Notes: generated by a model from the letters alone, not told the origin. A stretch of 64,000 nt of DNA from Rhodospirillaceae bacterium (GCA_002717225.1 PBDG01000009.1:76563-140562); one strand, 5' to 3'. Counted from the stretch's first letter, positions 12,935-57,852 are shown. Translations and numbers: made by a program.

Positions 12935-12953
12935 AGAGCCGAAAGTACAGGCG

Positions 12954-17321: not shown

Positions 17322-17486
17322 AATGGTGACGTTACCCAGCGCCACCCGTCGAAAATTGTCCCCAAATTATAATTCCGTGCACCATTTCATAGTTTTTGGG
17401 GTGCATCGAATTCGTTGCATGAACACATTTGTCGAAAAACGAATGTAGATTTCCCTACCACAGCAATAATTTATCATTGAATAAAT

Positions 17487-17502
17487 TAGTAAATATTTAC
17501 TA
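17487..17502. promoter_or_regulatory. Perfect 16-bp palindrome TAGTAAATATTTACTA, 9 bp upstream of the TetR start; candidate TetR operator overlapping its own promoter
   Basis: Read directly: tagtaaat/atttacta is self-complementary. It sits in an AT-rich 190-bp intergenic region immediately 5' of the TetR gene and the downstream exporter operon. Confidence 0.45.
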
Positions 17503-17510
17503 TACAAATC

Positions 17511-28930: not shown

Positions 28931-28949
28931 GGTCCTCTTCTCCTTCTCT

Positions 28950-31004: not shown

Positions 31005-31274
31005 TTAAGTCGCCCCTCCCGAAAAACATCGTGAACACTGTAAAATTGATGGTATTTGCAATAGCTTCTCCCCACACTTCAACTCTTCAAAAGGTCTCTA
31101 GGTTAGCAAATTTTGCGGTAACTTAGTATCCGACACAGAGCATGTCCACGACAACACTCATTAATAATTTAATGTTTTTCCACGCTCGACAAGTGCGGTT
31201 ACATACGGCAAGAATTTACGGCTGGCCGACTGCGGCCACAAATTATTTTGATGTCAGAGCGAAAGAGGTGCCGC

Positions 31275-33386: not shown

Positions 33387-33396
33387 GGATACAATT

Positions 33397-35688
33397 ATGC
33401 CCCGCATCAGCCAAATCACCGATACCACATTCGACGGTATCAACAATCCCTATGTGCCAAAAAAGGATCTTGACATTTCACCCAGTCTCAAACTGCACCG
33501 CGAGTGGGATGAAACCTTGGACCCGGTCACCTACGAGGTGATCCGCCACAATCTATGGAACATCAATGAAGAGCATGGCGCTACAATCCAGCGAATATCT
33601 GGTTCGCCAGTGGCTATGTTCGCTCTCGACCTTAATCCCTCGATTCTTACCGAGGATGCCGAATTCGTCTATTTCGGCCCCTATATGCAATACATGTCCG
33701 GCGTCACCGACACGCAGGTGAAATGGATTCTCGAATACCGCTCGGACAATCCGGGAATCAAGCCGGGAGATATGTTTCTCGCCAACGACCCTTGGGTCGG
33801 CGCAGCACATCAGATGGACGTAATGCTGATCTGCCCGGTCTTCCATGGTGACAAACTGTTTTGCTGGATCACCAATTGCCTCCATCAATACGATATCGGC
33901 GGCATCACCCCGGGCAGCTTCTGCCCGGCGGCAGAGAGCGCGTTCGACGAGGGCATCCTTATCCCGCCGGTGAAAATTGTCGAGAACGACGTAGTGCGCA
34001 AGGACATTGAAGCACTTTATCTCCGCTCGTCACGCAAGCCAGAGATGGTAGCGCTAGATTTCCGCGCTCAACTCGCTGGCAACATGACCGCTAAGACGCG
34101 CATCAAGGCACTGATTGATCGCTACGGTGCCAAGACCGTAAAAAGCGTGATGAAGAAGGTGATCGATAATTCCGAAGCTGCCTTCCTTTCAAAGCTAAAG
34201 AAAATCCCCGACGGGGTGTGGCGCGACCGCACATATGTTGAGGCCTGCCGCCCTGGCGACCGGCGTACCCACCGGGTGCAGATCGCGCTCACCAAGAAGG
34301 GGGACAAGCTGATCTTCGACAATGAGGGTACCGCGCCGCAAGACGGCGCCATGAACGCAACCTATTCCGGGTGGCGCGGTTCGGTGATGGTTGCAATCAA
34401 CGAGCTCTTGAGTTGGGATCAATATTTTGCGGTCGGTGGCGCTTTGCGCCATATCGAATTTGACCCAGTCCCTGGTACGCTTAACTGTGCTGATTTTCCT
34501 GCATCGGTCTCCACCGCACCGACGCAATCAATGGAAATCTCGCTCTATCCAGCCTATAACATCATCTCCAAGATGCTATATTCCGATGAAGAGCTGCGGC
34601 AAGACATCATGGGCATCGGTGGGACCAGTCAATGGCCGACCACCATCTTCCGTGGTATTGATCAATGGGGCGAACGATACGGCTATATTTTGATTGACCC
34701 GATAGGTGGATCTATTGGCGCGTTTGCACAAGGTGACGGCATCAACACTGGTGGCCAGGCAAGGACGCCGATCGGCCAGTTGCCCAATGTCGAACACAAT
34801 GAGCAACTCTTTCCCCTCCTATTCCTTTACCGCAAGGAGCTACCGGATTCAGGGGGCGCCGGGAAGTTCCGGGGCGGTCTCTCCGCGGAAAGCTGTTTCA
34901 TCCCACACAACACTGATTTCATCACCCAGGATACGCTTTCCTCCGGCAACGCTATCCCGACTTCAACCGGTATGATGGGCGGCTATCCGTCCACCACCAA
35001 CGCTTATACTTTCATCCGAGAGAGCGACATCTTTCAGCGCATGAAGGAGTCTAGGCTAATCGAAGACAGCTCCGAAGTAGCAGGCAACCCCCAACATCTC
35101 GAGCTACGCCAGGAAAATTTTGTGCAAAATTCAGCGGACGTTTATGCCGTGCGATGGTCTGGTGGCGGCGGCTTTGGCGATCCACTGCAACGCGACATCG
35201 AAAGGATCGTTCATGACCTGGAGCATCTCAATATTACGCCAAAAGCGGCGCGCGAGATTTTCGGCGCAGTGCTTGACGAAAATGAACAGGTAGATGTGGC
35301 GGCAACGGAAGAGAATCGTAACAAGATCCGCAAAGAACGCCTTGAGCGCCTCAAAAATGGCCAGGTGCCACGCGACAGCCATGCAGGAGAGACAGCTTTC
35401 CCTGCTGGAGATAATCTCGCGGTCTATGGCTCCGGCGATACCGCACGCTGGGGCTGCGCCCACTGCACCGCCGACCTTGGACCGATTGGTGAGAATTTCA
35501 AGGATGCATGTCTACGCGATGACCGCCCAGTTTCAGACTCCAACCCGCTGGTGGGCGACCCGGCTGTCTTTATTGATGATGCGGTCAATTTTCGCCTGTT
35601 TTATTGCCCATCCTGTGGTAATCAGATCGACAATGAAATAGCTGTGACCAGCGACGCTGTACTTCGCGACATTGAATTGACCGTGTAA
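33397..35688 (+). CDS. Hydantoinase B family subunit (HyuB), second paralog, with a C-terminal Cys4 (CxxC...CxxC) extension of about 150 aa
   Basis: HyuB blocks DPVTYEVIRHNLWNINEEHG and GGGGFGDPLQRD. The tail carries WGCAHC (Cys codons at 35454 and 35464) and YCPSCG (35605, 35614). Start taken at ATG 33397, after the hyuA stop. Confidence 0.8.
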   Translation: MPRISQITDTTFDGINNPYVPKKDLDISPSLKLHREWDETLDPVTYEVIRHNLWNINEEHGATIQRISGSPVAMFALDLNPSILTEDAEFVYFGPYMQYMSGVTDTQVKWILEYRSDNPGIKPGDMFLANDPWVGAAHQMDVMLICPVFHGDKLFCWITNCLHQYDIGGITPGSFCPAAESAFDEGILIPPVKIVENDVVRKDIEALYLRSSRKPEMVALDFRAQLAGNMTAKTRIKALIDRYGAKTVKSVMKKVIDNSEAAFLSKLKKIPDGVWRDRTYVEACRPGDRRTHRVQIALTKKGDKLIFDNEGTAPQDGAMNATYSGWRGSVMVAINELLSWDQYFAVGGALRHIEFDPVPGTLNCADFPASVSTAPTQSMEISLYPAYNIISKMLYSDEELRQDIMGIGGTSQWPTTIFRGIDQWGERYGYILIDPIGGSIGAFAQGDGINTGGQARTPIGQLPNVEHNEQLFPLLFLYRKELPDSGGAGKFRGGLSAESCFIPHNTDFITQDTLSSGNAIPTSTGMMGGYPSTTNAYTFIRESDIFQRMKESRLIEDSSEVAGNPQHLELRQENFVQNSADVYAVRWSGGGGFGDPLQRDIERIVHDLEHLNITPKAAREIFGAVLDENEQVDVAATEENRNKIRKERLERLKNGQVPRDSHAGETAFPAGDNLAVYGSGDTARWGCAHCTADLGPIGENFKDACLRDDRPVSDSNPLVGDPAVFIDDAVNFRLFYCPSCGNQIDNEIAVTSDAVLRDIELTV

Positions 35689-43545: not shown

Positions 43546-44250
43546 CTAGCCACCCATGCCGACGAACTCCCGTACCAAATCAGGGTCAGAAAGTTGATCG
43601 GGAGAGACTTCGTTAACCAGTTGACCGCGCTGGATTATGTGAACGCGCTGGCTAAGCGAGGCTATGAAATCAAGATTCTGCTCTACTAAAACGATGGTCA
43701 GATTCCGGCTCGTTCGGAGGCTGTGCAGTATTTCGATGATTTCTTCAACAATGGAGGGTTGAATACCTTCGGTTGGCTCATCGAGGAGCAGCAGACTGGG
43801 ACCACCGCAAAGACAGCGCGCGAGTGCAAGGATCTGCTGCTCACCGCCTGAGAGGACGCGGCCTGCACGATCCAGGAGCGGTTTTAGACGCGGGAACGTC
43901 TCCAGCACCTCTTCCAGAACTTTCTCTTCGTCTACCTTGTGCATCGCCATGGCGATCTTGAGATTGTCGACAACCGAAAGATTGGGAAAAATATCGCGCC
44001 CCTGCGGCACATAGCCCACACCGCTCAAGTTGCGTTTATAGGCAGGCATGCGAGTAATGTTTTGGCCATTCAATTCGATGGTACCATCGGTGGGGCGTAA
44101 AAGACCTATTAACGCCTTCAAAAGTGTCGTCTTGCCCATGCCATTATGACCAAGAATGCCGACGAACTCGCCCTCGGCAACATTGAGGTCAATGCCATGC
44201 AGGATTGGAATACGCCCGTAAGCGGTTTTTAGCCCGGAAACTGCGAGCAT
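43546..44250 (-). CDS. HAAT-family (branched-chain amino acid/amide-type) ABC transporter ATP-binding protein, LivF-like
   Basis: Walker A GHNGMGKTT, signature LSGGEQQILALARCL, and a size of 234 aa. Confidence 0.85.
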   Translation of the reverse strand: MLAVSGLKTAYGRIPILHGIDLNVAEGEFVGILGHNGMGKTTLLKALIGLLRPTDGTIELNGQNITRMPAYKRNLSGVGYVPQGRDIFPNLSVVDNLKIAMAMHKVDEEKVLEEVLETFPRLKPLLDRAGRVLSGGEQQILALARCLCGGPSLLLLDEPTEGIQPSIVEEIIEILHSLRTSRNLTIVLVEQNLDFIASLSQRVHIIQRGQLVNEVSPDQLSDPDLVREFVGMGG

Positions 44251-44252
44251 AG

Positions 44253-45017
44253 TCAGGCGACCTCCCGCTTGCCCAGGTAAACGTCGCGCACATCCTGGTT
44301 CTTGAGCACGTTGTCCATCGTATCCTCTACCAGGATGGCGCCCTGGTTGAACACGGTGACCCTGTTGGCAATCGCCTTGATGAATTGCATGTCATGCTCG
44401 ACGACAATGAGTGAAGCGGTGCGGTTGATCTCACGAATCATCTCAGTTGTCCGGTGAACTTCTTCGTGGGTCATGCCGGCTGTCGGTTCGTCCAACAAAA
44501 TTAACTCCGGATCGCCGGTTAGCACGATGGCGAGTTCGACGCCTTGGCGCTCGCCATGAGCGAGTTGACCGACGAGGCGGTTAGCCACTCCGGTGAGGCC
44601 GATACGCTCGAGAATCTCATCGACCACCCGGTTGGATTCGCGATTGCTGTGATAGCGCCGCGCCGATAGCCAGATATTCTCTCGCACATCGAGGCCATCG
44701 AACACACTCGGCACCTGGGTCTTAATGCCGATACCTCGGCGCGCGATCTGATGGGTATGCGAGCCAGTAATATCATCGCCGCGGTAAATTACATGCCCTG
44801 ACGTCGGCTTGTATTGATGGGTAAGACAGCGAAAGAAGGTTGTCTTACCGGCTCCGTTGGGACCAATCAGGCACCGCAGTTCACCTTCAGCCATGCTGAA
44901 ATCAACATTGTCCACCGCTACCACGCCGCCAAACCGCATGGTAAGGCCGCGCGTCTCCAAAATGGGTCGCGCTGCATCAGTCACCCGCGCGCCCCTCCCG
45001 AGCGCCATTTCTGGCAC
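44253..45017 (-). CDS. HAAT-family ABC transporter ATP-binding protein, LivG-like
   Basis: Walker A GPNGAGKTT, signature LAHGERQGVELA, and the C-terminal LivG-type extension. The exact start is uncertain: 45017 overlaps the permease gene. Confidence 0.8.
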   Translation of the reverse strand: MPEMALGRGARVTDAARPILETRGLTMRFGGVVAVDNVDFSMAEGELRCLIGPNGAGKTTFFRCLTHQYKPTSGHVIYRGDDITGSHTHQIARRGIGIKTQVPSVFDGLDVRENIWLSARRYHSNRESNRVVDEILERIGLTGVANRLVGQLAHGERQGVELAIVLTGDPELILLDEPTAGMTHEEVHRTTEMIREINRTASLIVVEHDMQFIKAIANRVTVFNQGAILVEDTMDNVLKNQDVRDVYLGKREVA

Positions 45018-46068
45018 TATCGCCCCCCTCGTCTGTTGGTCGCGTCCAGGGTAAAAAACGTAGCGCTAGCATTTGCGCCGTGGGTTGAAGACCCTGTGGT
45101 ACGGCAAGCACGAAGAGGAGGATGATGCCGCCGAATACGAGGTAGGTGTTCAACCAGCCCGCGAAATTCTGCGTGCCCAACCAATTGTAGAGCATGAGGA
45201 GAGCAAGCGAGCCCAACATTGGTCCGATTAACGTACCAACGCCGCCGATCAGCACCCACATGATGATCTGCGCGGCAAGCGCAAGAGCAAATTTATCGGG
45301 ATTGACAAAATTGTTGAAGGTCACCAGCAAGAAGCCGGCCAGCCCAGCGATGCCGCCGCCGATGGTAAAGGTGATCATCTTGTAGAAGCGAACGTCGTAG
45401 CCAAGCAACTCGGCGCGTGTTTCATTTTCCTTGATAGCGACGATCACCCTGCCGAAATGGGTGCGCAACAGAAATCGCAGACCAAAATAGACCAGAATAA
45501 GTAGTGCCATAGCCACATAAAATTTGTCGTCAGGCCACAAGAGAGAGTCAGGAAAGCCAGGCCAGTTGGGGTCGGGTATCGAGGAAATGCCGTTGAAGCC
45601 CATTAGGCGTGCTTTGCCAATCACCCATTCTTCCCCCGAGGTCGAACGGATGAAGGCATATAGAATGAGCGTGACTGCAAGTGTGACCACGGCGAGATAA
45701 ACATCGTTCAATCGGCCATAGAACATGAAATAGCCAAGCAGCATGGCAAACGCCGCCGGTATAAAGATTGCGAGCAATATGGGAACGGTGCTTTCTCCCA
45801 TATTGATCACTCCAATTGCGTAGACATAGCCACCAAGACCGAAAAAGGCTGACTGGCCGAAACAGAGAATCCCGCCGAAGCCCCAGATAAAGGCAAGCGA
45901 GAGCGCCAACATGGCCATGGCGATGAAGAGAATCACCTTCAACAGTGTGAAGAGATCGAAAATTGTCGGCCCAAGAAACAGGAGCGCCAACATTATTGCA
46001 CCAGTGACCATCAAGCCGCGGGTGTTCCAGCTGTTGAAGTCAAACGTCTTCAGCATCGAATTGAACAT
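44977..46068 (-). CDS. HAAT-family ABC transporter permease, LivM-like
   Basis: 363-aa polytopic membrane protein in the liv-type operon. Confidence 0.8.
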   Translation of the reverse strand: MFNSMLKTFDFNSWNTRGLMVTGAIMLALLFLGPTIFDLFTLLKVILFIAMAMLALSLAFIWGFGGILCFGQSAFFGLGGYVYAIGVINMGESTVPILLAIFIPAAFAMLLGYFMFYGRLNDVYLAVVTLAVTLILYAFIRSTSGEEWVIGKARLMGFNGISSIPDPNWPGFPDSLLWPDDKFYVAMALLILVYFGLRFLLRTHFGRVIVAIKENETRAELLGYDVRFYKMITFTIGGGIAGLAGFLLVTFNNFVNPDKFALALAAQIIMWVLIGGVGTLIGPMLGSLALLMLYNWLGTQNFAGWLNTYLVFGGIILLFVLAVPQGLQPTAQMLALRFLPWTRPTDEGGDSARNGAREGRAGD

Positions 46069-46934
46069 CAGAGCGACCTGCGGAAAATTTTTCCAGTAAT
46101 GCCCTGCGGCAAGATGCGCAGCAACAATACCGCGACGATGAGGAGCGCGACACCGCCGATAATCGGTGTAGTCTCATAGGTAACGAGCTGGCGCACCGTA
46201 CCGAACACACCGGAAGCAACGATAGTACCAGTAATAGCTCCAGTGCCGGCAGTGATCACCGTGATAAATGCCTGGGCAACATAAGTGAAGCCAACGGTCG
46301 GGATAATCTGCGAGATCGGCGCCAAAAGACCACCGGCCAAACCAGTAAGCGCAGCGCCAATGCCAAAAGTCACCATGTAGACCTTGGGCGGGCTGATTCC
46401 GAGAGCCGCCGCCTGATCGGCATTCTGCATAGTGCCACGTGCAATCAGCCCGAGCTTGGTACGGGTGAAGGCGAGATAAATTCCCGCGAAAAGAATTACA
46501 GTCAGGCCGATCAGCACCAGCCGGTATACAGAAAGCTGATATTGGCCGATGCTAAAATTGCCCATCGGCGCCGAAACACCGGTGATGTAATTGCCAAAAA
46601 TGGAGGTAACTATACCGATCAAGAGAAGGCTCAAACCCCAGGTGGCAATCAGCGTGTCAACCAAGCGGCCGTAAAAGAAGCGGATCAAAAAGCGTTCCGC
46701 AAGAATGCCGATAACGCCAACAACAAGAGGCGACAGGATCAGCATAGAGACCCATATATTCACGCCAGCATTTGTGGCAACCACCGTGGTATAGCCACCA
46801 AGCATCATGAATTCGCCATGCGCGAAATTGATTACGCGCATCATGCCGAAAATGATCGCCAGCCCAGCGCATGTAAGCGCCAGGCTGGAAATCCCGTTCA
46901 GCACTTCGATTATGAGAAGTGCGGCCGTATCCAC
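46068..46934 (-). CDS. HAAT-family ABC transporter permease, LivH-like
   Basis: 288-aa polytopic membrane protein with the N-terminal motif LNGISSLALTCAGLAIIFG.... Confidence 0.8.
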   Translation of the reverse strand: MDTAALLIIEVLNGISSLALTCAGLAIIFGMMRVINFAHGEFMMLGGYTTVVATNAGVNIWVSMLILSPLVVGVIGILAERFLIRFFYGRLVDTLIATWGLSLLLIGIVTSIFGNYITGVSAPMGNFSIGQYQLSVYRLVLIGLTVILFAGIYLAFTRTKLGLIARGTMQNADQAAALGISPPKVYMVTFGIGAALTGLAGGLLAPISQIIPTVGFTYVAQAFITVITAGTGAITGTIVASGVFGTVRQLVTYETTPIIGGVALLIVAVLLLRILPQGITGKIFRRSL

Positions 46935-46980
46935 GGCTGAACCTTTAGGGCTTCCTGTTTGAGGTTATGCTGTTCCGCTT

Positions 46981-48219
46981 TTATAGAATGGGCTCAAGAT
47001 GCGCATCCATATCGGGCGTCTTGGTCAGATCACAGCGATCAACCACGTCGCTAGGATAAAGCTGACTGTAACTGTCAAAAATCTTCCAGCTTTGATTCTG
47101 GCACTCAGCTACATGCATATCCTGGATGACATGATTTGTTACCGGGTCAACGACCATGTGGCCCGCTGGGCCATCCCAAGCGATATCGCCGCTGCGAAGC
47201 GCATCCATCACTGCTTGACGCTCGTGCGTACCTGCCTTCTTGACACCCTCAGCCCACAGCATGGTTCCAAGATAGCCGCCGATACCAACCGCGTTGAGGT
47301 ACGGCGCATCGGAGCCAAAACGCTTATGATAGCGCGCTACGAAATCCTTATTGGCTGGCAGGTCGATTTCCTGAAAGTAAGGCTGAGCGCTGACGATGCC
47401 GTTACTCTCTTCTGGCTGAAGCTGCATATGTTCATTGCCAACGCCGAATGTGCAAGAAACGATCGGAATTTTGTTGAGCATTCCGGCCGCTGCCCACTGG
47501 CGGTAGAAACCCATGTGTGCTGCGCCCACAAGGCAGGTTGCGAGCCAATCAGGCTTGGCCTCCTGAATCTTGGCAATCGCCGGACCGAATTCGGTAACAT
47601 CGAGCGGGAAGTGATCACGCTGCAGTACTTCGCCGCCAAGGTCTCCAGAGAATTTCTGCAGCCATTTGCCAATGATTTGCGGCGCGTTATAGTCAGCCCC
47701 GATGTAATAGGCCTTCTTACCGCGATTATTGAAACCGAACTCCGCCGTAGGCTTCACCCACTGCACGGCGCCCACGCCCGAAACGAAATTGTTGATATCG
47801 CAAACGCCGCCTTCATAAATGACACTGTACCAGAGGAGGGTTTTGTAGCGCCGGAGTATTGGGCGAATGACTTCGCGCGACGCACTGGTGATAGCACCGT
47901 GTACAAGATCAACCCGCTCTTTGAGAGCCGCTTCCTGAGCATATTGTGCGTAAAGCTCCATGCTCGACTGCGGGTCATATTTGATCAATCTAATTTTCTT
48001 GCCATTTAGGCCGCCGGCAGCGTTGATTTCCTCAACCGCAAGCTCGCAGGTCATAGTCATCGGTGTACCGTAAATATCGAGACCACCTGATTGGTCAAAC
48101 AGCGAGGCAATTACGATCTCGTCATCCGCCTTACTCTTATAAGGCAAGATGCTGGCGGCAAAAGCGGTGCCAAGACCAGCACCCGCGCCCTTTAAAACAG
48201 TTCTGCGTGAAAGTTTCAT
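46981..48219 (-). CDS. HAAT-family periplasmic substrate-binding protein (LivK / amide-urea-binding-like) with a Tat-type signal
   Basis: N-terminal MKLSRRTVLKGAGAGLGTAFAA is a twin-arginine-like signal. The size and fold match type-I PBPs of the Leu/Ile/Val/urea/amide family. Confidence 0.8.
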   Translation of the reverse strand: MKLSRRTVLKGAGAGLGTAFAASILPYKSKADDEIVIASLFDQSGGLDIYGTPMTMTCELAVEEINAAGGLNGKKIRLIKYDPQSSMELYAQYAQEAALKERVDLVHGAITSASREVIRPILRRYKTLLWYSVIYEGGVCDINNFVSGVGAVQWVKPTAEFGFNNRGKKAYYIGADYNAPQIIGKWLQKFSGDLGGEVLQRDHFPLDVTEFGPAIAKIQEAKPDWLATCLVGAAHMGFYRQWAAAGMLNKIPIVSCTFGVGNEHMQLQPEESNGIVSAQPYFQEIDLPANKDFVARYHKRFGSDAPYLNAVGIGGYLGTMLWAEGVKKAGTHERQAVMDALRSGDIAWDGPAGHMVVDPVTNHVIQDMHVAECQNQSWKIFDSYSQLYPSDVVDRCDLTKTPDMDAHLEPIL

Positions 48220-48493
48220 TATTCGGCTACCTCCCTGATGAGCCTGTTCCGGTCAATGTATCAAGTTACCTAAACAAATTATTGGCGCATATTATGACTA
48301 TCATCCAATGGCACGCACGCAATATTTTTCTTATCAAGCAAAATCTTCCTTTGTGACTATTCTATTTGCCCCCACAAAACCATATCTATTCCCACCCGCC
48401 AATCCATATTTTCTTAAAAAATGCTGTCCCGGCAAGCTCTTTACGGGTACCAACCTCGGTTCTACTCCGTTTTATATGATCTGTAGAGGAGCG

Positions 48494-49507
48494 ATGGAAT
48501 ATCTTTTCGGCGACCCACCGGACCCAGGCGCGGTAAAAGAGATTGCCCCTGGCCTCCAGTGGCTGCGCATGCCACTCCCAATGGCACTCGATCATATTAA
48601 TCTCTGGCTAATCGAGGATGGTTCGGGCTGGACCTTAATTGACACCGGCCTATACAGCGGTTTGTCTCAAAAACTTTGGCGCAATGTGCTCAACAATCTC
48701 CTCGGCGGGCGGCCTCTGACACGGGTAATCTGCACCCATTTTCACCCCGATCACGTTGGGATGGCGGGCTGGCTTGTGGAAGAGACCGGCGCAGAATTTT
48801 GGATGGCGCGTGAGGAATGGCTTTACGCCAGAGTTCTGGCAATAGATACGGGCGAACACTTTACCGATGCCATGGTGGCGCATTACCACCGCGCCGGAGG
48901 TAGCCCGGAATATCTTGCCAAGCTTCGTGAACGAGGAGCATTTTTCTCGGGCATCGTCTCGGAAGTGCCCCGCAGCATTCAGCGTATTCGCGACGGCGAC
49001 GCATTCAAGATCGGTGGGAAGCAGTGGCACGTAGTAGTTGGCAACGGCCACGCCCCGGAGCACACTTGTCTGCTTTCGAGAGAACTCGGTTTATTTATTT
49101 CGGGCGATATAGTCTTGCCACGCATTTCACCACACATTGGCGTCTATGCGGACGAGCCCGACGGCAATCCACTGAGGGACTATTTAGAGACTCTGGAAAA
49201 ATTTCACGCGTTGCCGGACGATGCTATCGTCTTGCCATCGCATAACGAGCCTTTCCGCGGCCTGCACAAGCGTCTCAGCGAACTGCAACAGCATCATGCC
49301 GAGCGGCTCAAAGAATTTTCTCACGCCTGCGTCACGCCAGCGACCGCCCTCGACGTTGCGAAACAGGTGTTCGCACGGCGCCTAGATTCGGCGCAACTCG
49401 GCTTCGCCATCGCTGAGACAGTCGCGCACCTCAATTACCTGATTGCTGACGAGCAGATCAAACGCCGAACCAATGAAGATGGCGTCTATCTCTACCAAAA
49501 AATCTAA
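48494..49507 (+). CDS. MBL-fold metallo-hydrolase
   Basis: ICTHFHPDHVGMAGW (HxHxDH) and downstream His/Asp ligands. Start re-assigned to ATG 48494, which has a GAGGAG SD. The track ORF began inside an AT-rich promoter region. Confidence 0.75.
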   Translation: MEYLFGDPPDPGAVKEIAPGLQWLRMPLPMALDHINLWLIEDGSGWTLIDTGLYSGLSQKLWRNVLNNLLGGRPLTRVICTHFHPDHVGMAGWLVEETGAEFWMAREEWLYARVLAIDTGEHFTDAMVAHYHRAGGSPEYLAKLRERGAFFSGIVSEVPRSIQRIRDGDAFKIGGKQWHVVVGNGHAPEHTCLLSRELGLFISGDIVLPRISPHIGVYADEPDGNPLRDYLETLEKFHALPDDAIVLPSHNEPFRGLHKRLSELQQHHAERLKEFSHACVTPATALDVAKQVFARRLDSAQLGFAIAETVAHLNYLIADEQIKRRTNEDGVYLYQKI

Positions 49508-50661
49508 AAACCCAGATAACGATCGACCATATCTCGCAGAATTAGTGCGGCATCAACCATTTGATCAAGCGGAACATACTCGTTGGCGGCATGACTTGTA
49601 GCGCCGTCACCTGGGCCGAAATTACAGATCTCGATCTCATCATCGGCGAAATAACGCCCCTCGCTAACCGCCAGCGCATTAACAAAATTCGGAGCTAAAC
49701 CACGGCGGGCTTCAATAGCGGCGGCAAGCGCTGCGATACCAGGACCATCTTTTTTTGGCGAGAAACCGTTGGTGCCAGTCAGAAATTCTGTTGAAAAACT
49801 TTCGGGCGGCTCATTCACATCAGCAAGAATTTCCACTACCTCATCGTAGGCGGCGCAGACATCCTCTTCAGGTAACAGGCGACGGTCGATCTCAAGCCAG
49901 CACGAACTTGGCACGACATTAACATTATGCCCGCCCTGAATCCGCCCGATGTTCATCGTCGAACGCTTCTCGCCATTGACGCGTTTTTCGAGACGCGGCT
50001 CAAGCACCCGGCGCAAATGATCAACCAGGCGCATCATACGAAGAATTGCGTTATCTCCAGCTTGCGGATCACCGCCATGAGCGGCACGTCCTGTCACAGT
50101 TATACGCAGCCAGAGAACGCCGCGCTCCTCGGTGATGAGCTCGTTTTGCGTCGGCCCGCCGACCAGCAAGAAATCCGGCCTGAGCGCATCCGATTCGCGC
50201 AAAAAGCGCATGCCATTTGGACCAAGCCTCTCCTCGTCGCCAGTGAATGTGAAGACAACCTCACCCTTCTTGGGGCCGCCTCGACGCATTATCTCCTCGC
50301 CGAGCCAGATATGAAGTGCCGTAGATCCTTTGCAATTATTGGCACCGAGGCCGTAGATCGCGCCATTGCGCTTAACAGCTTCAAAGGGATCGCTCAGCCA
50401 ATCACCGAGATCACCAACTTCTACCGTATCGATATGACAGTTGAATCCAAACTGTGGCGACCCTGTGCCAACGCGGGCCACGAGATTGTCAATGCTAGGG
50501 GCGCAGCTCTTGGTTTCGCAGATGTAACCAGCGGACTCAAAGCGAGCGCGAATATAAGCGCACATTTTCCTTGTGTCACCCGGTGGATAGGTTGAAGGTA
50601 TGCCGATAAGGTCGCCCAAGATATCGGTCAGTTCGTGTGTGAGTTTGGCTTCGCTCGTCAT
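49504..50661 (-). CDS. M20-family metallopeptidase / deacylase (ArgE/DapE-like)
   Basis: 385 aa with M20 catalytic and dimerisation blocks (...HIDTVEVGD..., ...GANNCKGS..., ...EEIMRRGG...). Confidence 0.8.
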   Translation of the reverse strand: MTSEAKLTHELTDILGDLIGIPSTYPPGDTRKMCAYIRARFESAGYICETKSCAPSIDNLVARVGTGSPQFGFNCHIDTVEVGDLGDWLSDPFEAVKRNGAIYGLGANNCKGSTALHIWLGEEIMRRGGPKKGEVVFTFTGDEERLGPNGMRFLRESDALRPDFLLVGGPTQNELITEERGVLWLRITVTGRAAHGGDPQAGDNAILRMMRLVDHLRRVLEPRLEKRVNGEKRSTMNIGRIQGGHNVNVVPSSCWLEIDRRLLPEEDVCAAYDEVVEILADVNEPPESFSTEFLTGTNGFSPKKDGPGIAALAAAIEARRGLAPNFVNALAVSEGRYFADDEIEICNFGPGDGATSHAANEYVPLDQMVDAALILRDMVDRYLGF

Positions 50662-50988: not shown

Positions 50989-51909
50989 ATGTGCGGAATC
51001 GCAGGCATCATGTTCAAAAATGGTCGAACTGACCATGAAACGGGCGTGGCGCTAATCGATATGCTCGATGGCTGCCAACACAGGGGTCCGGATTCCACGG
51101 GCTTTGCGCTCTATGGCGAAGAACACACGAGCGAGCTCAAGTTACGCTTTCTTATTGGAGACGGCACCGCGGCCGATGACTCCGTCGAACTGATCAAGAG
51201 TGCGCTGGAGGATCATGATGCGGAAATCGTCGACGATATGCGCATCGGCAACAATTATCAGGCGCTGGTGCGCTTTAACGGCGATCTACGCAGCTTTGCC
51301 TATGCGATGGAACACGCGGCGCCCGATGCTAAAGTCATCTCCATCGGACAGAGCCTAGATATCGTCAAAGATGTGGGCGGCGCCCATGATGTAGATGACC
51401 GCTTCGACGTACATAACTTTAAAGGCAGCCATGGCCTCGGCCATGTGCGCCTCGCCACCGAATCGGATGTCCGCCCGGAATCAGCGCACCCTTTCTGGGC
51501 TACTGGTTTTTCCGACGTCGCCATCGTCCATAACGGCCAGATCACCAATTATTGGAAGATGCGCCGCCGGCTTGAGCAACGCGGATTTGAATTCCGCACC
51601 GACAATGATAGTGAATTAGTTGCTGTCTATCTTGCCGACAAAATGTCCCAGGGAGTGCCTCTGCGCGAAGCCCTAAAAGCTTCGATTGAAGATTTGGACG
51701 GCACTTTTTCCTTCCTCGTCTCGACCAAGGACGAAATCGGCTATGCCAAGGATAATCTCGCCGCGAAACCGATGGTCATGTACGAAACCGACGACCTCAT
51801 CGCCATCGCTTCGGAAGAAGTGTCCCTTAATCGCCTGTTTCCGGGCCACGCACTGAACACCAAGGAGCCCCCGCCGGGGAGCTATGATACATGGTCCAAA
51901 TCGACCTAG
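50989..51909 (+). CDS. Class-II (Ntn) glutamine amidotransferase, GlxB/MgsA-like subunit of a split glutamate-synthase-like enzyme
   Basis: The mature N-terminus after Met is CGIAGI, the class-II GATase nucleophile Cys. The size is about 306 aa. Start set at ATG 50989. Confidence 0.8.
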   Translation: MCGIAGIMFKNGRTDHETGVALIDMLDGCQHRGPDSTGFALYGEEHTSELKLRFLIGDGTAADDSVELIKSALEDHDAEIVDDMRIGNNYQALVRFNGDLRSFAYAMEHAAPDAKVISIGQSLDIVKDVGGAHDVDDRFDVHNFKGSHGLGHVRLATESDVRPESAHPFWATGFSDVAIVHNGQITNYWKMRRRLEQRGFEFRTDNDSELVAVYLADKMSQGVPLREALKASIEDLDGTFSFLVSTKDEIGYAKDNLAAKPMVMYETDDLIAIASEEVSLNRLFPGHALNTKEPPPGSYDTWSKST

Positions 51910-53843
51910 CGGAAATTCCAGTCCGCCAGGCCAACGAACTTATCCGCAAATATGGGGCCGACGGCGAGGATATTGATATAATTAACCCCGACGCGCGACA
52001 TCACGTCGGCGTAGGGTTGACCGACCCAGTGACTGTGCGCGTGCACGGGTCCGCAGGTTATTTCTGCGCTGGCTTGACCGATGCGGCCCACTTCGAGATT
52101 GAAAGCAACGTCGGCTGGGGCCTTGGCGACAATATGTATACAGGCTCTGTTATCGTTGGCGGAAATGCCAGCGCAATCGCCGGCGTGGCGATACGCGGCG
52201 CCGAAATTGTCATCAAAGGCAATATGGGATCGCGCGCCGGACAAGTAATGAAAGCGGGCACACTCTTGTGCTGTGGCAATGCAAATTTTATGGCCGGCTA
52301 TCTCATGTATGGCGGGCGCATCATCATCCTGGGCGATTCCGGCGAACGCGTCGGTGAAGATATGGCCGCCGGTGAGATTTATGTCGGTGGAAAGGTTCAG
52401 TCGCTTGGCTCCGATGCCAAAATGGGCGATACGGAAAGCAGCAAAATTGACGAGCTACGCGCCTTTCTCGACCGTTACAAGATTACCTTTAATGGCGATT
52501 TCCAGAAAATTGTCAACGAAGGCAAAAAGCTGCATTACAAAACCTCAGAACGGCCGATGCGCAGCCTTCCCTTTGTCGGATTCTCGGGAAAATCGGATTA
52601 CTGGAACCCGAAAATTCAGGAAGATATTCATATAAAATCACAGATTGGCCGCTATCGCGTACGTGGTTATGGCGGTGCGCGGGAACTGCCACACCTGGCA
52701 GATATCGGATTCGCGCGGAATATCTCCGGGTTAAATGAGATTTCCAACCCGGTGTCCAAGGTCGAGATGCGCACGCTGATCGGCGGCAAACACGGGGCGC
52801 AACCGCTCGACCTTTCAATGCCGGTGATGATCGCGCCAATGAGCTATGGCGCGTTGAGCCGTTCCACCAAACAAGCCATCGGTATCGCCTCATCGCTCGC
52901 AGGAATCGCGGAAAATACCGGTGAAGGTGGTATGAGCGACGCCCAGCGTGGTGCCGCGGAGCAATTGGTTTTCCAAATGCTTGGTGGACGGCTTGGTTGG
53001 AACATCCATGATATGAAACGCGCCAATGGGTTGGAGATCTATATTAGCCAGGGCGCCAAGCCCGGCTTCGGCGGTCAGCTCATGGCGAAAAAGGTGACCA
53101 AGGAACTAGCCGAAATTCGAGGTATCCCCCAAGGCATCGATCTGCGCTCACCATCGCGGCATCCGGATATTCTGGGCGGCGACGATCTCCTCATCAAGGT
53201 CGAGGAAATGCGCGAAGCAACAGGATATCGTTTGCCGGTCAGCGTCAAGCTAGGCGCCGGACGGGTGCGCGACGACATCAAGATCGCTTACAAGGATGGC
53301 TTCGATTTTGTCGAGCTCGACGGCATGCAGGGCTCAACCGGTGCCGGTGGCGCAGAAGTCATGGAATATGTTGGCATTCCCACTATCTCAGCGATCATGG
53401 ACGCGCTTGATGGTCTGGCGGAGATCGACGCCGACGGCAAAATTCAAATCATTCTCATGGGTGGTCTGCGCGACGGCGTGGACGCAGTCAAATCGCTTTG
53501 TCTCGGCGCCGATGCGGTGGCCTTTGGCAACGCCACGATCATCGCCGGCGGTTGCATTTCCTGCATGCAGTGCCATGTTGGTCAGTGTGTGACCGGCATC
53601 GCAACCCAGGACCCCGAGCATGAGAAGCGCTACCGCCCGGAAATCGAAGCGCATAATATCCACCGCTTTCTCGAAGGAGTGCGCTGGCAGATCGCAGCGC
53701 TGACCCACGCACTCGGCTATGGAGATGTCAAATCTCTCAACCGGGACGACCTCGTCGCCCTGACCCCAGAGGCGGCGGAGATCACGCGCCTTCCCTACCG
53801 GCCAGAGCTTCGCGAACAACAGCATCTCAGCAAGGCAGTCTAA
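51891..53843 (+). CDS. Fusion protein: GXGXG-repeat domain (N-terminal, GlxC/GltB C-terminal-domain-like) + glutamate-synthase FMN/Fe-S central domain (GlxD/GltB domain-2-like)
   Basis: N-terminal 230 aa has G-rich beta-helix repeats (VIVGGNASAIAG..., VIKGNMGSRAGQV..., LCCGNANFMAGY..., IILGDSGERVGED..., IYVGGKV). The C-terminal 420 aa has NTGEGG, QGAKPGFGGQL, DGMQGSTGAGG, and the 3Fe-4S motif C-x5-C-x4-C followed by VTGIATQDP. Confidence 0.8.
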   Translation: MVQIDLAEIPVRQANELIRKYGADGEDIDIINPDARHHVGVGLTDPVTVRVHGSAGYFCAGLTDAAHFEIESNVGWGLGDNMYTGSVIVGGNASAIAGVAIRGAEIVIKGNMGSRAGQVMKAGTLLCCGNANFMAGYLMYGGRIIILGDSGERVGEDMAAGEIYVGGKVQSLGSDAKMGDTESSKIDELRAFLDRYKITFNGDFQKIVNEGKKLHYKTSERPMRSLPFVGFSGKSDYWNPKIQEDIHIKSQIGRYRVRGYGGARELPHLADIGFARNISGLNEISNPVSKVEMRTLIGGKHGAQPLDLSMPVMIAPMSYGALSRSTKQAIGIASSLAGIAENTGEGGMSDAQRGAAEQLVFQMLGGRLGWNIHDMKRANGLEIYISQGAKPGFGGQLMAKKVTKELAEIRGIPQGIDLRSPSRHPDILGGDDLLIKVEEMREATGYRLPVSVKLGAGRVRDDIKIAYKDGFDFVELDGMQGSTGAGGAEVMEYVGIPTISAIMDALDGLAEIDADGKIQIILMGGLRDGVDAVKSLCLGADAVAFGNATIIAGGCISCMQCHVGQCVTGIATQDPEHEKRYRPEIEAHNIHRFLEGVRWQIAALTHALGYGDVKSLNRDDLVALTPEAAEITRLPYRPELREQQHLSKAV

Positions 53844-53844
53844 G

Positions 53845-56376
53845 TTGGCAGCGAGTAAAGACAGCGGAGTGGAAGCTCCCATGCTTCTTCCGGCTGAAAT
53901 GCCGGACGATACGGACGACCTGCATTTTGTCCCTGCACCCTGCCAGGTGGCCTGCCCTGTCGGAACCGACGCGCCTTCCTATATAGCCTATATATGGGAA
54001 GGCAAATATGAGGAAGCGTTCGAGGCGATTACCGCTACCAACCCATTCAGCTCGATTTGCGGACGGGTGTGCGATGCCCCATGCGAACCTGCCTGCAGAC
54101 GGGTACAATCAGATGGGCCCGTGCAAATCCGCAATCTCAAGCGTTACGTCATGGATGAAATTGGCGACCGGCTCGATCCGCCTCCCGTGCCAGTCACCCA
54201 GAAAGAGACGGTGGCCATCGTCGGGTCCGGACCGGCCGGCTTAGTCGCCGCGCATGATTTGTCGATCGCCGGCTATGAAGTCCACGTCTACGAGATGACC
54301 GACCGGCTAGGTGGAATGATGATATGGGGCATCCCCGCTTTCCGCTTGCCACCCGGCGTGATTGACGAAGACATTCAGCGCCTAACCAAGCGCTGTCCTG
54401 GCCTCAAGATTCACCTCAACACTGCGCTGGGCGATGGTGTGACACTGGAGGAACTAAAGGAGCGCCATGACGCCGTGGTGCTCGCCATTGGCTCCTGGTG
54501 GGGCAAAAAGATGGGAATTCCGGGAGACACCGACACGCGGGTCATCGACGGCGTGCAGTTCCTGCGTGACGTCAATGCTGGCGCACGGCCGGAAATGCCG
54601 GAAACCGTGGTCGTGGTCGGCGGCGGGGACGTCGCCATGGACGCCTGCCGAGTCGCCAAGAGACTTCCTGGCTGCAAGCACGTCAAAGTGATCTATCGTC
54701 GGGGGCCGGACGAGATTCCGGCGCGCGCCATTGAGCTTGAGGGGGCCGTCAAAGAGGATATCGAATTCATCTACAACACCCAACAAACCGCCGTTTCTCC
54801 AAAGGGCAACCAGCTCGCCATCACCTGCCTTAAAACCGAGTTGGGTGAACCAGACGAAGAAGGCCGGCGCGTTCCAGTCGAGATAGTGGGCAGCGAGCAC
54901 GAGATTGAATGCGGTATGATCATTGCCTCGATCGGCCAGCAGGGCAAATGTGCTCATCTCGACGAGAAAGGCATGATGCTGAGTGATCGCGTGCGGACAG
55001 AATGGGGCAGTATGTTGACCGACGACCCAAAAGTCTTCGCCGCCGGCGACGGCGCTTTCGGCGGATCAACTATCGTCATGGCCATGCATCACGGTCAACG
55101 CGTCGCTTATTACGTGAAGGCGTTTCTCGAAGGCCATAGGGACCCTATGCCCTACCGCCAACCCTTCCGCACCCGACGGGTGCCTCTGGCGCAGGATCTC
55201 GAGTGGGAGAAGCTGCCGTTACAAGAACCCGCCTTTCACGGGCTAGGCGCCAATCCGATCGAGTTCCCCGAGATCGAAGATACTTATGGCAGCGACACGG
55301 CACGCAATGAGGCAGCGCGCTGCTATCGCTGCGACGCAGAGACTGGTACTGCTGACTATTCCGTGCGCCACCGCGAGGACATTTTCACCATGGCGCGCAC
55401 CAACCCACTCGACGAGCGTTCGCATGCCACAATGCTTGCGCGCCGCTTGCAGCCGCGCGATAACCCTTTTCCAGACCACCGAAAGGCCACGCTGGACGAT
55501 CTCATCTTTCTGCCAGCCAATCTGACCCGACTGGTGATTGACCCCTACCGCGAGGCATGCCGAATTGACACGGAACTCGGCGCCGGACGCTTCGTTATGG
55601 AGCAACCCTTTATCGCTACCGGATTCGACGACGCACCAGGTCAAGTACGTGAAGCCATTGCCGAGGGCCTAAAGGATTTTGACACTCCCTATCTCGGAGT
55701 ACGCGCTCTTTCAACGGATGTTCCCTGGCTGCAACTGGTCGTGCCGGGGCAGATCGCACCGAGCACTGACGCGGCGGCGCAGATTCATAACCTAGGTCAC
55801 GAATTTCGACCGATTGAGACGACGCGTCTGACAGAAAACCAACTTCTTGGCTTGTCGGTTTCCTCTCCCGACATACTGGAAGAAACGATCTCTTATGCCC
55901 TGGCGAAGAAATTTGATATACTCCTCCTCGACGGCAGCGGCGGCCTCGGCACGCCCTGGGCCGAGCTCTCCGGTGAACCCAATCTAACCATCCTGCGCGA
56001 CGCCGTCGCTATTCTCAGACGTATTGGGCGAGAGGAAGAGATCGACCTGATTTTTTTCGGTGGTGTTCGCTCGGGCACTGATACGGCTAAGCTGGTAGCG
56101 CTCGGTAGCATGGCGGTGGTGCTTGGCGTTACCCTGGGACTGGCCGCTGGAGCTGAAATTAGAGACCGGCACGACATGCAATTCTCCGCCGATCGTGACA
56201 AAAATGATCGCGCCGAAGCGGTGGCCCATATTCTTAATGCTAGCGCCCAAGAAGCGTCGATGATGGCGCGGTGCACCGGCAAGACCAATCTGCAAAACGT
56301 CGAGCCGGAGGATTTGCGCGCAATTACCATCGCCACCGCCAAAGCCACCGGTATCCCGCTCGCCGGCACGCTTTGA
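53845..56376 (+). CDS. Fusion protein: GltD-like NAD(P)H:flavin/Fe-S oxidoreductase (N-terminal, about 470 aa) + degenerate second glutamate-synthase-like TIM-barrel domain (C-terminal, about 370 aa)
   Basis: N-terminal Cys-rich block ...CQVACPVGTDAP...ICGRVCDAPCEPACRR..., then IVGSGPAGLVAAHDL (FAD) and VVGGGDVAMDACRVA (NADPH). The C-terminal half has LDDLIFLPANLTR, ILLLDGSGGLGTPW and IFFGGVRSGTDTAKLVALGSMAVVLG, but lacks the NTGEGG and QGAKPG motifs. Confidence 0.8.
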   Translation: MAASKDSGVEAPMLLPAEMPDDTDDLHFVPAPCQVACPVGTDAPSYIAYIWEGKYEEAFEAITATNPFSSICGRVCDAPCEPACRRVQSDGPVQIRNLKRYVMDEIGDRLDPPPVPVTQKETVAIVGSGPAGLVAAHDLSIAGYEVHVYEMTDRLGGMMIWGIPAFRLPPGVIDEDIQRLTKRCPGLKIHLNTALGDGVTLEELKERHDAVVLAIGSWWGKKMGIPGDTDTRVIDGVQFLRDVNAGARPEMPETVVVVGGGDVAMDACRVAKRLPGCKHVKVIYRRGPDEIPARAIELEGAVKEDIEFIYNTQQTAVSPKGNQLAITCLKTELGEPDEEGRRVPVEIVGSEHEIECGMIIASIGQQGKCAHLDEKGMMLSDRVRTEWGSMLTDDPKVFAAGDGAFGGSTIVMAMHHGQRVAYYVKAFLEGHRDPMPYRQPFRTRRVPLAQDLEWEKLPLQEPAFHGLGANPIEFPEIEDTYGSDTARNEAARCYRCDAETGTADYSVRHREDIFTMARTNPLDERSHATMLARRLQPRDNPFPDHRKATLDDLIFLPANLTRLVIDPYREACRIDTELGAGRFVMEQPFIATGFDDAPGQVREAIAEGLKDFDTPYLGVRALSTDVPWLQLVVPGQIAPSTDAAAQIHNLGHEFRPIETTRLTENQLLGLSVSSPDILEETISYALAKKFDILLLDGSGGLGTPWAELSGEPNLTILRDAVAILRRIGREEEIDLIFFGGVRSGTDTAKLVALGSMAVVLGVTLGLAAGAEIRDRHDMQFSADRDKNDRAEAVAHILNASAQEASMMARCTGKTNLQNVEPEDLRAITIATAKATGIPLAGTL

Positions 56377-56565: not shown

Positions 56566-57852
56566 ATGGATATATCGCTCAATTACGGTAAAACCCAACT
56601 TGTCGTAACGCTACCGGATGACCTTGAAGTCCGTGTCATCCGCAAGCCTGACATGCCGCTCCTGGATGATCCGGTGGCAACACTCGAAGCCTCGTTTGCC
56701 AAGCCAGACGGCGGCCCAAATCTCGCCTATCTTGCCAGAAAAGCACAAACAGCCTGTATTCTCATTTGCGACATCACACGCCCAGTGCCAAACAGTGTAT
56801 TGCTGCCACCGCTCCTCCGTGCGCTTCTCGCTGCCGGGCTAGGCAGGGAAAACATCGTTATTCTCGTCGCCACCGGTCTGCACCGGCCAAATGAAGACGA
56901 GGAGCTGGCCGAGTTGGTCGGTGATCCCTGGGTGATGGAGAATTTTGCCGTCGTCAATCATTTTGCCCGCGACGATGCCTCACATGTTTCACTCGGACGC
57001 ACAAGGAGTGGAACAAAAGTCATGCTAGATAAACGCTTCGTAGAAGCGGACCTCCGCATCGCCACTGGTCTAGTAGAGCCCCATTTCATGGCTGGCTGGT
57101 CCGGTGGGCGCAAGGTGATCGCGCCGGGAGTCGCCCATGCCGAGACCATTACCACCTTCCACAGCGCAAGGTTTATGGAGCATCCTAATTGCGCCAATTG
57201 CGTGCTCGACGGCAATCCGCTGCATGACGAACAACTTGAAATTATCGCCATGTTAGGCTGCGTCAGTGCGATCAATGTAGTGATCAATGAGGATCGTCGT
57301 ATTTCAATGATTAATTTCGGTGAGGTAGTAAAAAGCCATATGGCAGCGGTAGATCATGTCCGCACCTATGCCGAAGTCCCAATGCCGGAGCGCTTCTCCA
57401 CCGTGATTACCAGCGCCGCGGGCTACCCCCTCGACAAGACCTACTATCAAACAGTGAAAGGCATGGTCGGTCCGCTAGATATCCTGAAGCCTGGTGGAAC
57501 TCTCGTCATTGCCTCGGCCTGTTCCGAAGGCATGGGCTCGGCGGAATATATCACCTCCCAACGTAATCTGATGAATATGGGCGCTGATCGCTTCCTCAAA
57601 CATATCGAGTCTAAAAGTCACGCAGCGGTCGATGAATGGCAGACCGAGATGCTTTTGAAACCGCTTCGCTCGGGCCAAGTGGTTCTCTACACTGAAGGCC
57701 TAACGGAAGAGGAACTCTCCCTTACCGCCGTGAAACCCACCACCTCAATTGACCAAGCAATAGTTGCAGCAGTCGCTGACGCTAACGACAAGCGCATAGC
57801 GGTTATTCCGGAAGGGCCCTATGTGGTTCCACGATACCGGCCCGGGATTTGA
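56566..57852 (+). CDS. LarA-family (nickel-pincer-nucleotide-dependent lactate racemase-like, DUF2088) protein
   Basis: The N-terminal domain matches LarA blocks: ...ILICDITRPVPNSVLLPPLL..., ...VILVATGLHRP..., ...VNHFARDD..., ...ATGLVEPHFMAGWSGGRKVIAPGVA.... The last block carries the cofactor-tethering Lys and the catalytic His region. Length 428 aa. Confidence 0.75.
   Translation: MDISLNYGKTQLVVTLPDDLEVRVIRKPDMPLLDDPVATLEASFAKPDGGPNLAYLARKAQTACILICDITRPVPNSVLLPPLLRALLAAGLGRENIVILVATGLHRPNEDEELAELVGDPWVMENFAVVNHFARDDASHVSLGRTRSGTKVMLDKRFVEADLRIATGLVEPHFMAGWSGGRKVIAPGVAHAETITTFHSARFMEHPNCANCVLDGNPLHDEQLEIIAMLGCVSAINVVINEDRRISMINFGEVVKSHMAAVDHVRTYAEVPMPERFSTVITSAAGYPLDKTYYQTVKGMVGPLDILKPGGTLVIASACSEGMGSAEYITSQRNLMNMGADRFLKHIESKSHAAVDEWQTEMLLKPLRSGQVVLYTEGLTEEELSLTAVKPTTSIDQAIVAAVADANDKRIAVIPEGPYVVPRYRPGI

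Follow-up and report, generated by a model that had tools for sequence, protein, structure and literature searches.

Three consecutive genes, here named g1, g2 and g3, in the metagenome-assembled genome (MAG) of a marine 'Rhodospirillaceae bacterium' encode what is probably a reductive amidotransferase acting on 2-oxoglutarate, with NAD(P)H as the source of electrons and the g3 product as their port of entry. The trio lies on the plus strand, at positions 50,989 to 56,376 of the 64,000-nucleotide (nt) stretch of DNA that was analysed as a whole (GCA_002717225.1 PBDG01000009.1:76563-140562), referred to as the window in the following. There is about an even chance that the three products form one NAD(P)H-dependent complex of the glutamate synthase (GOGAT) type, which would convert glutamine and 2-oxoglutarate into glutamate. 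Compared module by module with known enzymes, the trio appears to work like the NADPH-dependent glutamate synthase, yet it is no member of the GltB/GltD (GltBD) family in architecture, and it descends from the GlxBCD/MgsABC stock. The genes and their domains are the following:

50989..51909, plus strand: g1, a stand-alone class-II (N-terminal nucleophile, Ntn) glutamine amidotransferase of the GlxB/MgsA type, 306 residues (open reading frame and Pfam).
51891..53843, plus strand: g2, a GXGXG beta-helix (GlxC/MgsB type) joined to a flavin mononucleotide (FMN) synthase barrel (GlxD/MgsC/GltB type), 650 residues.
51993..52445, plus strand: g2 GXGXG beta-helix domain, residues 35-185 (Pfam PF01493, E 1.3e-13).
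52794..53720, plus strand: g2 FMN/synthase (beta/alpha)8 barrel, residues 302-610, with the QGAKPGFGGQL loop (Pfam Glu_synthase PF01645, E 8e-89).
53553..53588, plus strand: g2 iron-sulfur (Fe-S) cluster motif C555-x2-C558-x2-C561-x4-C566 (ortholog alignment).
53845..56376, plus strand: g3, a GltD-like reductase fused to a shortened synthase-type barrel, 843 residues (Pfam, NCBIfam).
53935..54159, plus strand: g3 Fe-S domain, residues 31-105 (Pfam Fer4_20, E 6e-23).
54208..55095, plus strand: g3 flavin adenine dinucleotide (FAD)/NAD(P)H module, residues 122-417 (Pfam Pyr_redox_2).
55321..55332, plus strand: g3 C493-x2-C496, in the extension after the reductase module (invariant in 26 sequences).
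55477..56373, plus strand: g3 C-terminal shortened TIM barrel of the Glu_synthase type, residues 545-843.

An earlier reading of the same DNA (the original prediction) had proposed this set of modules in this order, as three consecutive and translationally coupled genes akin to GlxBCD and MgsABC; all three open reading frames were found where it had placed them, Pfam and NCBIfam domain searches bear out the content and order of each protein, and the kinship is seen in identities of 35-38% to MgsA, MgsB and MgsC of Paracoccus aminophilus. The genes are indeed translationally coupled: g1 and g2 overlap by 19 nt, and the TTG start of g3, at 53845, lies one base beyond the TAA stop of g2 (53841-53843), a junction spacing that recurs in related loci. 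Upstream, a ribosome-binding site (GAAGGGGA) precedes the ATG of g1 by 7 nt, and promoter and terminator scans returned signals at background level only. As for the start of g3, which is ambiguous, TTG 53845 yields 843 residues, the length of most homologs, and ATG 53881, 36 nt further 3' and with GGAG 11 nt upstream, yields the 831 residues of the public record. Conservation is lacking over roughly the first 14 residues.

The g1 product begins with MCGIAG, i.e. with a Cys right after the initiator Met, as a class-II amidotransferase requires at position 1; Pfam assigns it to GATase_6 and GATase_7 (E 3e-20), and BLASTP aligns it with P. aminophilus MgsA over the full length at 38% identity. 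In the public record the proteins of the window are MBI05679.1 to MBI05681.1, of which the second and third are named 'glutamate synthase'. MBI05679.1, identical to g1, carries the name 'amidophosphoribosyltransferase', a misannotation, since the class-II amidotransferase fold is common to both; databases label proteins of the trio 'glutamate synthase', 'FAD-dependent oxidoreductase' or, wrongly, 'amidophosphoribosyltransferase'.

For g2, BLASTP finds 35% identity to MgsB, 37% to MgsC and 34% to residues 861-1128 of Escherichia coli GltB, and the NCBIfam match of its beta-helix is to a formylmethanofuran dehydrogenase subunit C-like model. The placement of the beta-helix in front of the barrel had been taken for a circular permutation of GltB, an explanation that gives way to a simpler one. 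In tblastn searches many plasmids have neighbouring genes of the glxC and glxD types over which g2 aligns colinearly at 35-37% identity, one of these loci being the mgsA-mgsB-mgsC-glnT cluster of P. aminophilus plasmid pAMI6. Because this alignment is colinear, and because amidotransferase, GXGXG helix and FMN barrel follow each other in the usual order of glxBCD and mgsABC, g2 reads as a fusion of neighbouring glxC/mgsB- and glxD/mgsC-type genes and not as a permuted GltB.

What sets g2 apart from MgsC, and had been overlooked before, is the Fe-S cysteine motif. An alignment of 40 orthologs has C555, C558 and C561 throughout, whereas C566 is read in 39 and stands as an ambiguous X in the remaining one; of these residues, C555, C561 and C566 align with C1102, C1108 and C1113, the ligands of the [3Fe-4S] cluster of E. 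coli GltB. No Cys occupies the motif positions in the alignment of P. aminophilus MgsC or of an MgsC-like protein from one of the related loci (L058), so that the lack of an electron-input apparatus is a trait of the two MgsC-type proteins examined, with no established family definition behind it. Since the Fe-S cysteines of GltB are retained and a fourth is added, g2 is, as far as the alignment tells, a GlxCD-type synthase equipped to receive electrons, like GltB and unlike MgsC. The fourth Cys yields a ferredoxin-like CxxCxxC pattern, and for this reason the g2 cluster is probably [4Fe-4S] rather than the [3Fe-4S] cluster of GltB.

The motifs around the substrate site point in the same direction. 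GltB and MgsC both act on 2-oxoglutarate/glutamate, and QGAKPGxGGQL and KVT..IA..R are common to both enzymes and to g2, where KVT..LAEIR aligns with GltB. Conservation of the substrate site was judged on such motifs and not on single residues; active-site numbers considered for this purpose (903, 969, 972, 978, 992) mapped poorly onto the E. coli GltB numbering and were not used. The proposal of a reductive, amidotransferase-fed amination is thus supported by the modules, the g2 cluster motif and the g3 reductase; leaving the 2-oxo acid unspecified, as had been done, was needlessly open, given the motifs that g2 shares with GltB and MgsC.

The electrons would be supplied by g3, whose first 430 residues form a reductase of the GltD type (33% identity to E. 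coli GltD). NCBIfam models of the 'glutamate synthase small subunit' type match its first 500 residues at E 1e-112 or better, and the sequence matches of the reductase in the PDB are GltD, NfnA and related modules, the nearest by sequence and fold being NfnA and the GltD-like modules of 9bov and 8oh5. The invariant C33, C37, C72, C76, C80 and C84 match C55, C59, C94, C98, C104 and C108 of E. coli GltD; equivalents of GltD C47 and C50 are missing, so that six of the eight cluster cysteines of GltD are matched, and the C493/C496 pair in the extension that follows the reductase module is a candidate replacement that may provide the two missing ligands.

The C-terminal part of g3, over which the PDB sequence search found no solved structure, had been described as a visibly degenerate synthase barrel, and such it is: about 90 residues shorter than catalytic barrels, it has neither the QGAKPG loop nor the cluster cysteines, while the invariant GGVRSGTD motif, of the phosphate-binding type, is retained. 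The Pfam Glu_synthase model matches residues 680-764 weakly, though above its gathering score (E 3.6e-5); profile-profile alignment with the g2 barrel gives a probability of 97.7% (E 1.6e-12), BLASTP against MgsC gives 31.6% identity (E 1e-18), and the C-terminal tails are nearly identical (EPEDLRAIT..GIPLAGT in g3, EPEDLCSLT..GVPLAGT in MgsC). An AlphaFold model of the barrel alone reaches a mean per-residue confidence (pLDDT) of 83.6. These alignments make the barrel of g3 a paralog of that of GlxD/MgsC, and its strong conservation shows a functional domain and not a decaying one. Two further cysteines in the barrel region, C572 (55558-55560) and C810 (56272-56274), are invariant in 26 (A1) and 39 (A2) sequences.

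As to its role, the g3 barrel is probably a docking or tunnel module, because it is devoid of catalytic loop and cysteines and is found fused to g2 with or without the reductase in the variants described below. In GltB the central domain is a truncated barrel, possibly derived from an FMN barrel, that lines the ammonia tunnel (PMC8097209), and it is plausible by analogy that the g3 barrel is its functional counterpart. Homology between the two is not claimed, because sequence evidence for it was not found, and only a possible functional analogy is meant; indeed, Pfam reports no Glu_syn_central match in g1, g2 or g3.

The trio is widespread and keeps its form. The database holds more than 3,797 homologs of g3, the best 120 of which are around 840 residues long and 66-100% identical, and all those among the 120 with an organism name come from MAGs; among 72,556 plasmid records there is no full-length g3. 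A scan of one genome per species (185,579 species) found relatives in 483, i.e. in at least 483 species-level genomes of uncultured bacteria; the best 80 of these are MAGs of Alpha- and Gammaproteobacteria, Acidiferrobacterales, Planctomycetota, Latescibacterota, Opitutales and Acidimicrobiia. The carriers are hundreds of uncultured bacteria, mostly marine. A survey for the same architecture elsewhere, which the original prediction had suggested, shows the order g1-g2-g3 kept in 81 non-redundant related loci wherever the flank suffices, with identities of 68-97% for g1, 70-98% for g2 and 63-95% for g3; these loci all stem from MAGs and represent several phyla. That the three are genes is far beyond chance. 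When the g3 barrel was used to search 1.84 billion cluster representatives, 480 clusters matched (51 at E 1e-30 or better), and since only these match, the barrel family is compact.

Two fusion variants are informative. In P0161 (1486 residues) g2 and g3 are joined end to end, as GXGXG, Glu_synthase, Fer4_20, Pyr_redox_2 and barrel, a Rosetta-stone fusion which argues that g2 and g3 form one complex. In P0167 (1031 residues; positions 6001-9096 of locus L087) g2 is followed directly by a g3-type barrel; the reductase module is absent, and the four-Cys motif is intact. Because the barrel is retained there without the reductase, the g3-type barrel would be tied to the synthase rather than to the reductase. 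In L087 the neighbours of the P0167 gene are SoxD/A/G-like, HTH-cupin (helix-turn-helix) regulator, GlxB-type amidotransferase, glutamine-synthetase-family and YbaK-like genes. By analogy with the ferredoxin-dependent glutamate synthase, P0167 is possibly a ferredoxin-dependent form.

Taken as a glutamate synthase, the trio contains all the catalytic modules of the NADPH-dependent enzyme, namely amidotransferase, GXGXG helix, FMN barrel and GltD-like reductase, and external electrons would be needed, as in GOGAT, because g2 bears cluster cysteines and the reductase g3 is encoded next to it. The N-terminal Cys of g1 would hydrolyse the gamma-amide of glutamine; a tunnel in the protein would lead the released ammonia to the FMN of g2, where it would add to 2-oxoglutarate; and the resulting 2-iminoglutarate would be reduced by reduced FMN. 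Electrons from NAD(P)H would reach this site via the FAD of g3, the two [4Fe-4S] clusters of g3 and the four-cysteine cluster of g2, while the non-catalytic barrel of g3 would hold reductase and g2 together as a docking module and may form part of the tunnel wall, as does the truncated 'central' barrel of GltB.

Set against GltB/GltD (NADPH-glutamate synthase, EC 1.4.1.13), the trio has in common the Cys1 Ntn amidotransferase, the FMN barrel and the GXGXG beta-helix, the cluster cysteines C-x5-C-x4-C at the same three positions of the FMN barrel and an additional shortened barrel that accompanies the catalytic one (cf. the central domain, PMC8097209); its reductase, with six of the eight GltD cluster cysteines matched, would be of the FAD/NAD(P)H/2x[4Fe-4S] type. 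It differs in being made of three polypeptides instead of two, without a single subunit of about 1500 residues in which amidotransferase, central domain, FMN barrel and GXGXG helix follow each other; in its beta-helix, which is N-terminal to the FMN barrel; in its GlxB-type amidotransferase of about 300 residues, with no BLAST match to that of GltB; in the absence, by sequence, of a Glu_syn_central domain, the extra barrel residing on the reductase chain; in the fourth cluster cysteine of g2 (C558); and in the two of the eight GltD cluster cysteines that are relocated or missing in g3.

MgsABC/GlxBCD (EC 2.1.1.21, e.g. of P. aminophilus pAMI6) are closest by sequence and share the gene order of amidotransferase, GXGXG and FMN barrel, the nearly identical EPEDL...IPLAGT tail of MgsC and the g3 barrel and, in some trio loci, type III glutamine synthetase (GS), sox/mgd-like genes, folD and Amt as neighbours. 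Unlike these systems, the trio has the GlxC and GlxD parts fused in g2, a four-Cys cluster motif that is foreign to MgsC and a third gene, for the GltD-like reductase with a truncated GlxD-type barrel, and its window is without gmaS or mgd. The variant P0167, from outside the window, is to the trio as the ferredoxin-dependent glutamate synthase (GltS; EC 1.4.7.1) is to the NADPH-dependent one, in that it has the cluster motif without the reductase, and it differs from GltS in the domain order and extra barrel of the trio. A GltD-like electron-input module fused to a further domain is also a feature of dihydropyrimidine dehydrogenase (DPD) and of Nfn/Hyl-type fusions. In contrast to these proteins, the g3 barrel is of the Glu_synthase and not the DHODH type, Pfam detects in g3 neither a DHO_dh domain nor a C-terminal 2x[4Fe-4S] ferredoxin domain, and there is no molybdopterin or NfnB-type partner. 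No published description was found of the g2 fusion with its cluster site or of a GltD fused to a truncated synthase barrel, in a search that mostly did not extend to subscription journals, in agreement with the original view of the architecture as undescribed. The dimethylamine monooxygenase DmmABC was considered as an identity for g3 and discarded, as PMC5520151 offers no link to the g3 architecture.

The genes around the trio were counted over the 81 loci with tblastn panels, which supersede longest-open-reading-frame calls that gave antisense artefacts in high-GC loci (clusters c3, c10, c11, c13, c19). The neighbours in the window and the recurring ones in the related loci are:

43546-48219: ABC (ATP-binding cassette) transporter of the Liv/urea/amide type.
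48308-49507: metallo-beta-lactamase-fold protein.
49504-50661, minus strand: M20 ArgE/DapE-family deacylase, divergent from g1.
56566-57852, plus strand: LarA-like protein (nickel-pincer-cofactor 2-hydroxyacid racemase family), 190 nt after g3.
18 of the 81 loci: type III GS (GmaS-like), usually directly after g3.
14 of the 81 loci: Amt.
8 of the 81 loci: sox/mgd-like subunits (alpha, beta, gamma, plus delta).
5 of the 81 loci: folD.

Besides these, the window contains a major facilitator superfamily transporter and a GlpD-like FAD oxidoreductase, and GlnE is among the recurring neighbours in related loci. The 64-kb window holds no gmaS, mgd or gltB and no lar cofactor genes (larB, larC, larE), and no canonical gltB lies in any of the related loci retrieved. 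The statement that gmaS and mgd genes are not nearby is hence right for the window and does not extend to the family, as the counts above show. The type III GS scores 675 bits with TIGR03105 (cut-off 470), and 11 of 12 copies compared are about 59% identical to GlnT/GmaS of P. aminophilus. Four loci (L017, L019, L036, L039) read g1-g2-g3-type III GS-folD-...-soxB/D/A/G-like, with the trio in the position that mgsABC has on pAMI6. In L058 and L065 a split set of mgsA/B/C-like genes, free of the cysteines, stands between the trio and the type III GS that comes after it, and the minus strand carries a further GS-like gene, glxB and a fused glxCD, in a region that looks like an amine-assimilation island; there (~1,200-17,700) three glutamate-synthase-like sets stand within 23 kb, with GntR-type and PuuR-like regulators between them. 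Fifty loci have at least 5 kb on both sides. Type III GS, Amt or sox-like genes lie within 10 kb in 17 of these; 14 have the M20 gene, which the LarA-like gene accompanies in nearly every case; a further 17 have none of the recurring neighbours searched for, just unrelated ones that do not recur, and because of these 17 the trio would behave as a self-sufficient unit working on common metabolites.

The LarA-like gene follows the trio in 17 loci, all of one alphaproteobacterial clade, and the M20 gene keeps its place in 16 loci of the same clade (54-82% identity). Their presence beside the trio was rejected as a functional clue because such synteny is clade-specific; the LarA-like protein falls below every NCBIfam cut-off of the LarA family (LarA 362 against 460 bits, malate racemase 308 against 500), and the LarA literature (PMC11770544) makes no link to glutamate synthase. 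Among side observations on the window, the periplasmic binding protein of the ABC transporter (Peripla_BP_5/6; 46981-48219, minus strand) has 77-98% identity in 11 related loci and thereby surpasses the trio itself in conservation across the same genomes, and two divergent pairs of hydantoinase/oxoprolinase A and B genes are present (26915-31004, minus strand, and 31248-35688, plus strand), the B subunit of the second pair having an acetone-carboxylase-gamma-like C-terminal domain.

Which nitrogen donor the trio uses is the point on which the alternatives divide. That glutamate synthesis from glutamine is favoured is due to the self-contained nature of the trio in many unrelated contexts, the window included, to the coexistence of canonical mgsABC-like genes with the trio in L058 and L065, and to recurring neighbours that are general nitrogen-assimilation genes (glutamine-synthetase family, Amt, GlnE). 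Several observations weigh on the other side. The g1 and g2 proteins are closer to MgsA/B/C (35-38%) than to GltB, with which g1 has no BLAST match at E 1e-3; the g3 barrel was not matched by sequence to the central domain of GltB, the weak hhalign hit with the single E. coli GltB sequence (1.2% probability) falling in the FMN-barrel region; a catalytic role of this barrel may be argued from its motif of the FMN-phosphate type and its numerous invariant polar residues; every carrier found is uncultured; and in L017, L019, L036 and L039 the trio sits exactly where mgsABC does in a methylamine cluster. The ancestry in GlxBCD and this exact positional replacement make a reductive N-methylglutamate synthase ('methyl-GOGAT'), with gamma-glutamylmethylamide as donor and N-methylglutamate and glutamate as products, a serious rival, although we regard it as a tentative one. 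Here g1 would hydrolyse gamma-glutamylmethylamide made by GmaS, the methylamine would be channelled to 2-oxoglutarate on g2, electrons from NAD(P)H, delivered by g3, would reduce the N-methylimine, and a sox/mgd-like dehydrogenase would then give the one-carbon unit to tetrahydrofolate. For N-methylglutamate synthase a GOGAT-like reaction has been proposed in which 2-oxoglutarate receives the methylamide of gamma-glutamylmethylamide, with an unknown reductant (PMC6237917). Consistent with such a role, g1 and g2 are of the GlxB/C/D-MgsA/B/C type; the type III GS of 18 of the 81 loci resembles the GmaS/GlnT that follows mgsABC in P. aminophilus; L017, L019, L036 and L039 go on with folD and soxB/D/A/G-like genes, and no split mgsABC is seen in L017, L019 and L039; and Amt is adjacent in 14 loci. 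However, the window and about two thirds of the well-flanked loci are without gmaS, mgd and Amt within 10 kb; the canonical, cysteine-free mgsABC-like set between trio and type III GS in L058 and L065 argues that the trio is not simply an N-methylglutamate synthase; and trios from methylamine-type and from unrelated contexts are 63-77% identical to each other, which suggests a single function, whatever the neighbours.

Amination of some other 2-oxo acid with glutamine, perhaps linked to the LarA-like racemase and the M20 deacylase, is unlikely. The two genes are indeed neighbours of the trio, in the window as well as in 16-17 related loci, and g2 is just 34-37% identical to characterised relatives, but these neighbours are confined to one alphaproteobacterial clade and absent from the other trio lineages, the substrate-loop motifs of g2 match those of enzymes using 2-oxoglutarate/glutamate, and no recurrent partner hints at a different acceptor. 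Still less probable is a self-contained, DPD-like g3 with a catalytic FMN barrel, for which g1 and g2 would be a redox-neutral operon mate of the GlxBCD type. The layout of g3, in which an FMN-type TIM barrel comes after a GltD-like module, does resemble that of DPD, and GGVRSGTD as well as numerous polar residues are invariant in the barrel; yet DPD matches g3 only over residues 29-430 in the PDB sequence search, the barrel is short by about 90 residues, among them the catalytic loop, and P0167 has it on g2 after loss of the entire reductase module. Furthermore, the cluster motif of g2, which redox-neutral MgsC does not have, needs an electron partner, for which g3 is the sole candidate in the operon. 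Glutamate synthesis from glutamine and 2-oxoglutarate thus stays the preferred assignment of the trio.

Glutamate synthase is the main entry of nitrogen into biomass, and to our knowledge its architecture is regarded as settled. The trio family departs from it in that the same machine appears to be built from GlxBCD-type parts, with a four-cysteine cluster site in the synthase and a reductase that carries a cut-down synthase barrel. As a model open to experiment, this extra barrel would help to explain how the GltB central domain arose and what it does (PMC8097209). The trio may be the route by which its carriers bring ammonium or methylamine nitrogen into glutamate; if it is their GOGAT, metabolic reconstructions that search for gltBD would miss it. 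If, instead, the trio uses gamma-glutamylmethylamide, it would answer how the synthesis of N-methylglutamate can be reductive and where the reductant comes from (PMC6237917). The trio would then be the missing reductive N-methylglutamate synthase, i.e. an NAD(P)H-driven gamma-glutamylmethylamide:2-oxoglutarate aminotransferase, an assignment that is possible but doubtful; as a corollary, the g3 barrel would be a living analogue of the event in which GltB gained its truncated central domain from a duplicated synthase barrel, and the trio and GmaS together would constitute a GS/GOGAT-like cycle by which abundant uncultured marine bacteria place the nitrogen of methylamine straight into glutamate.

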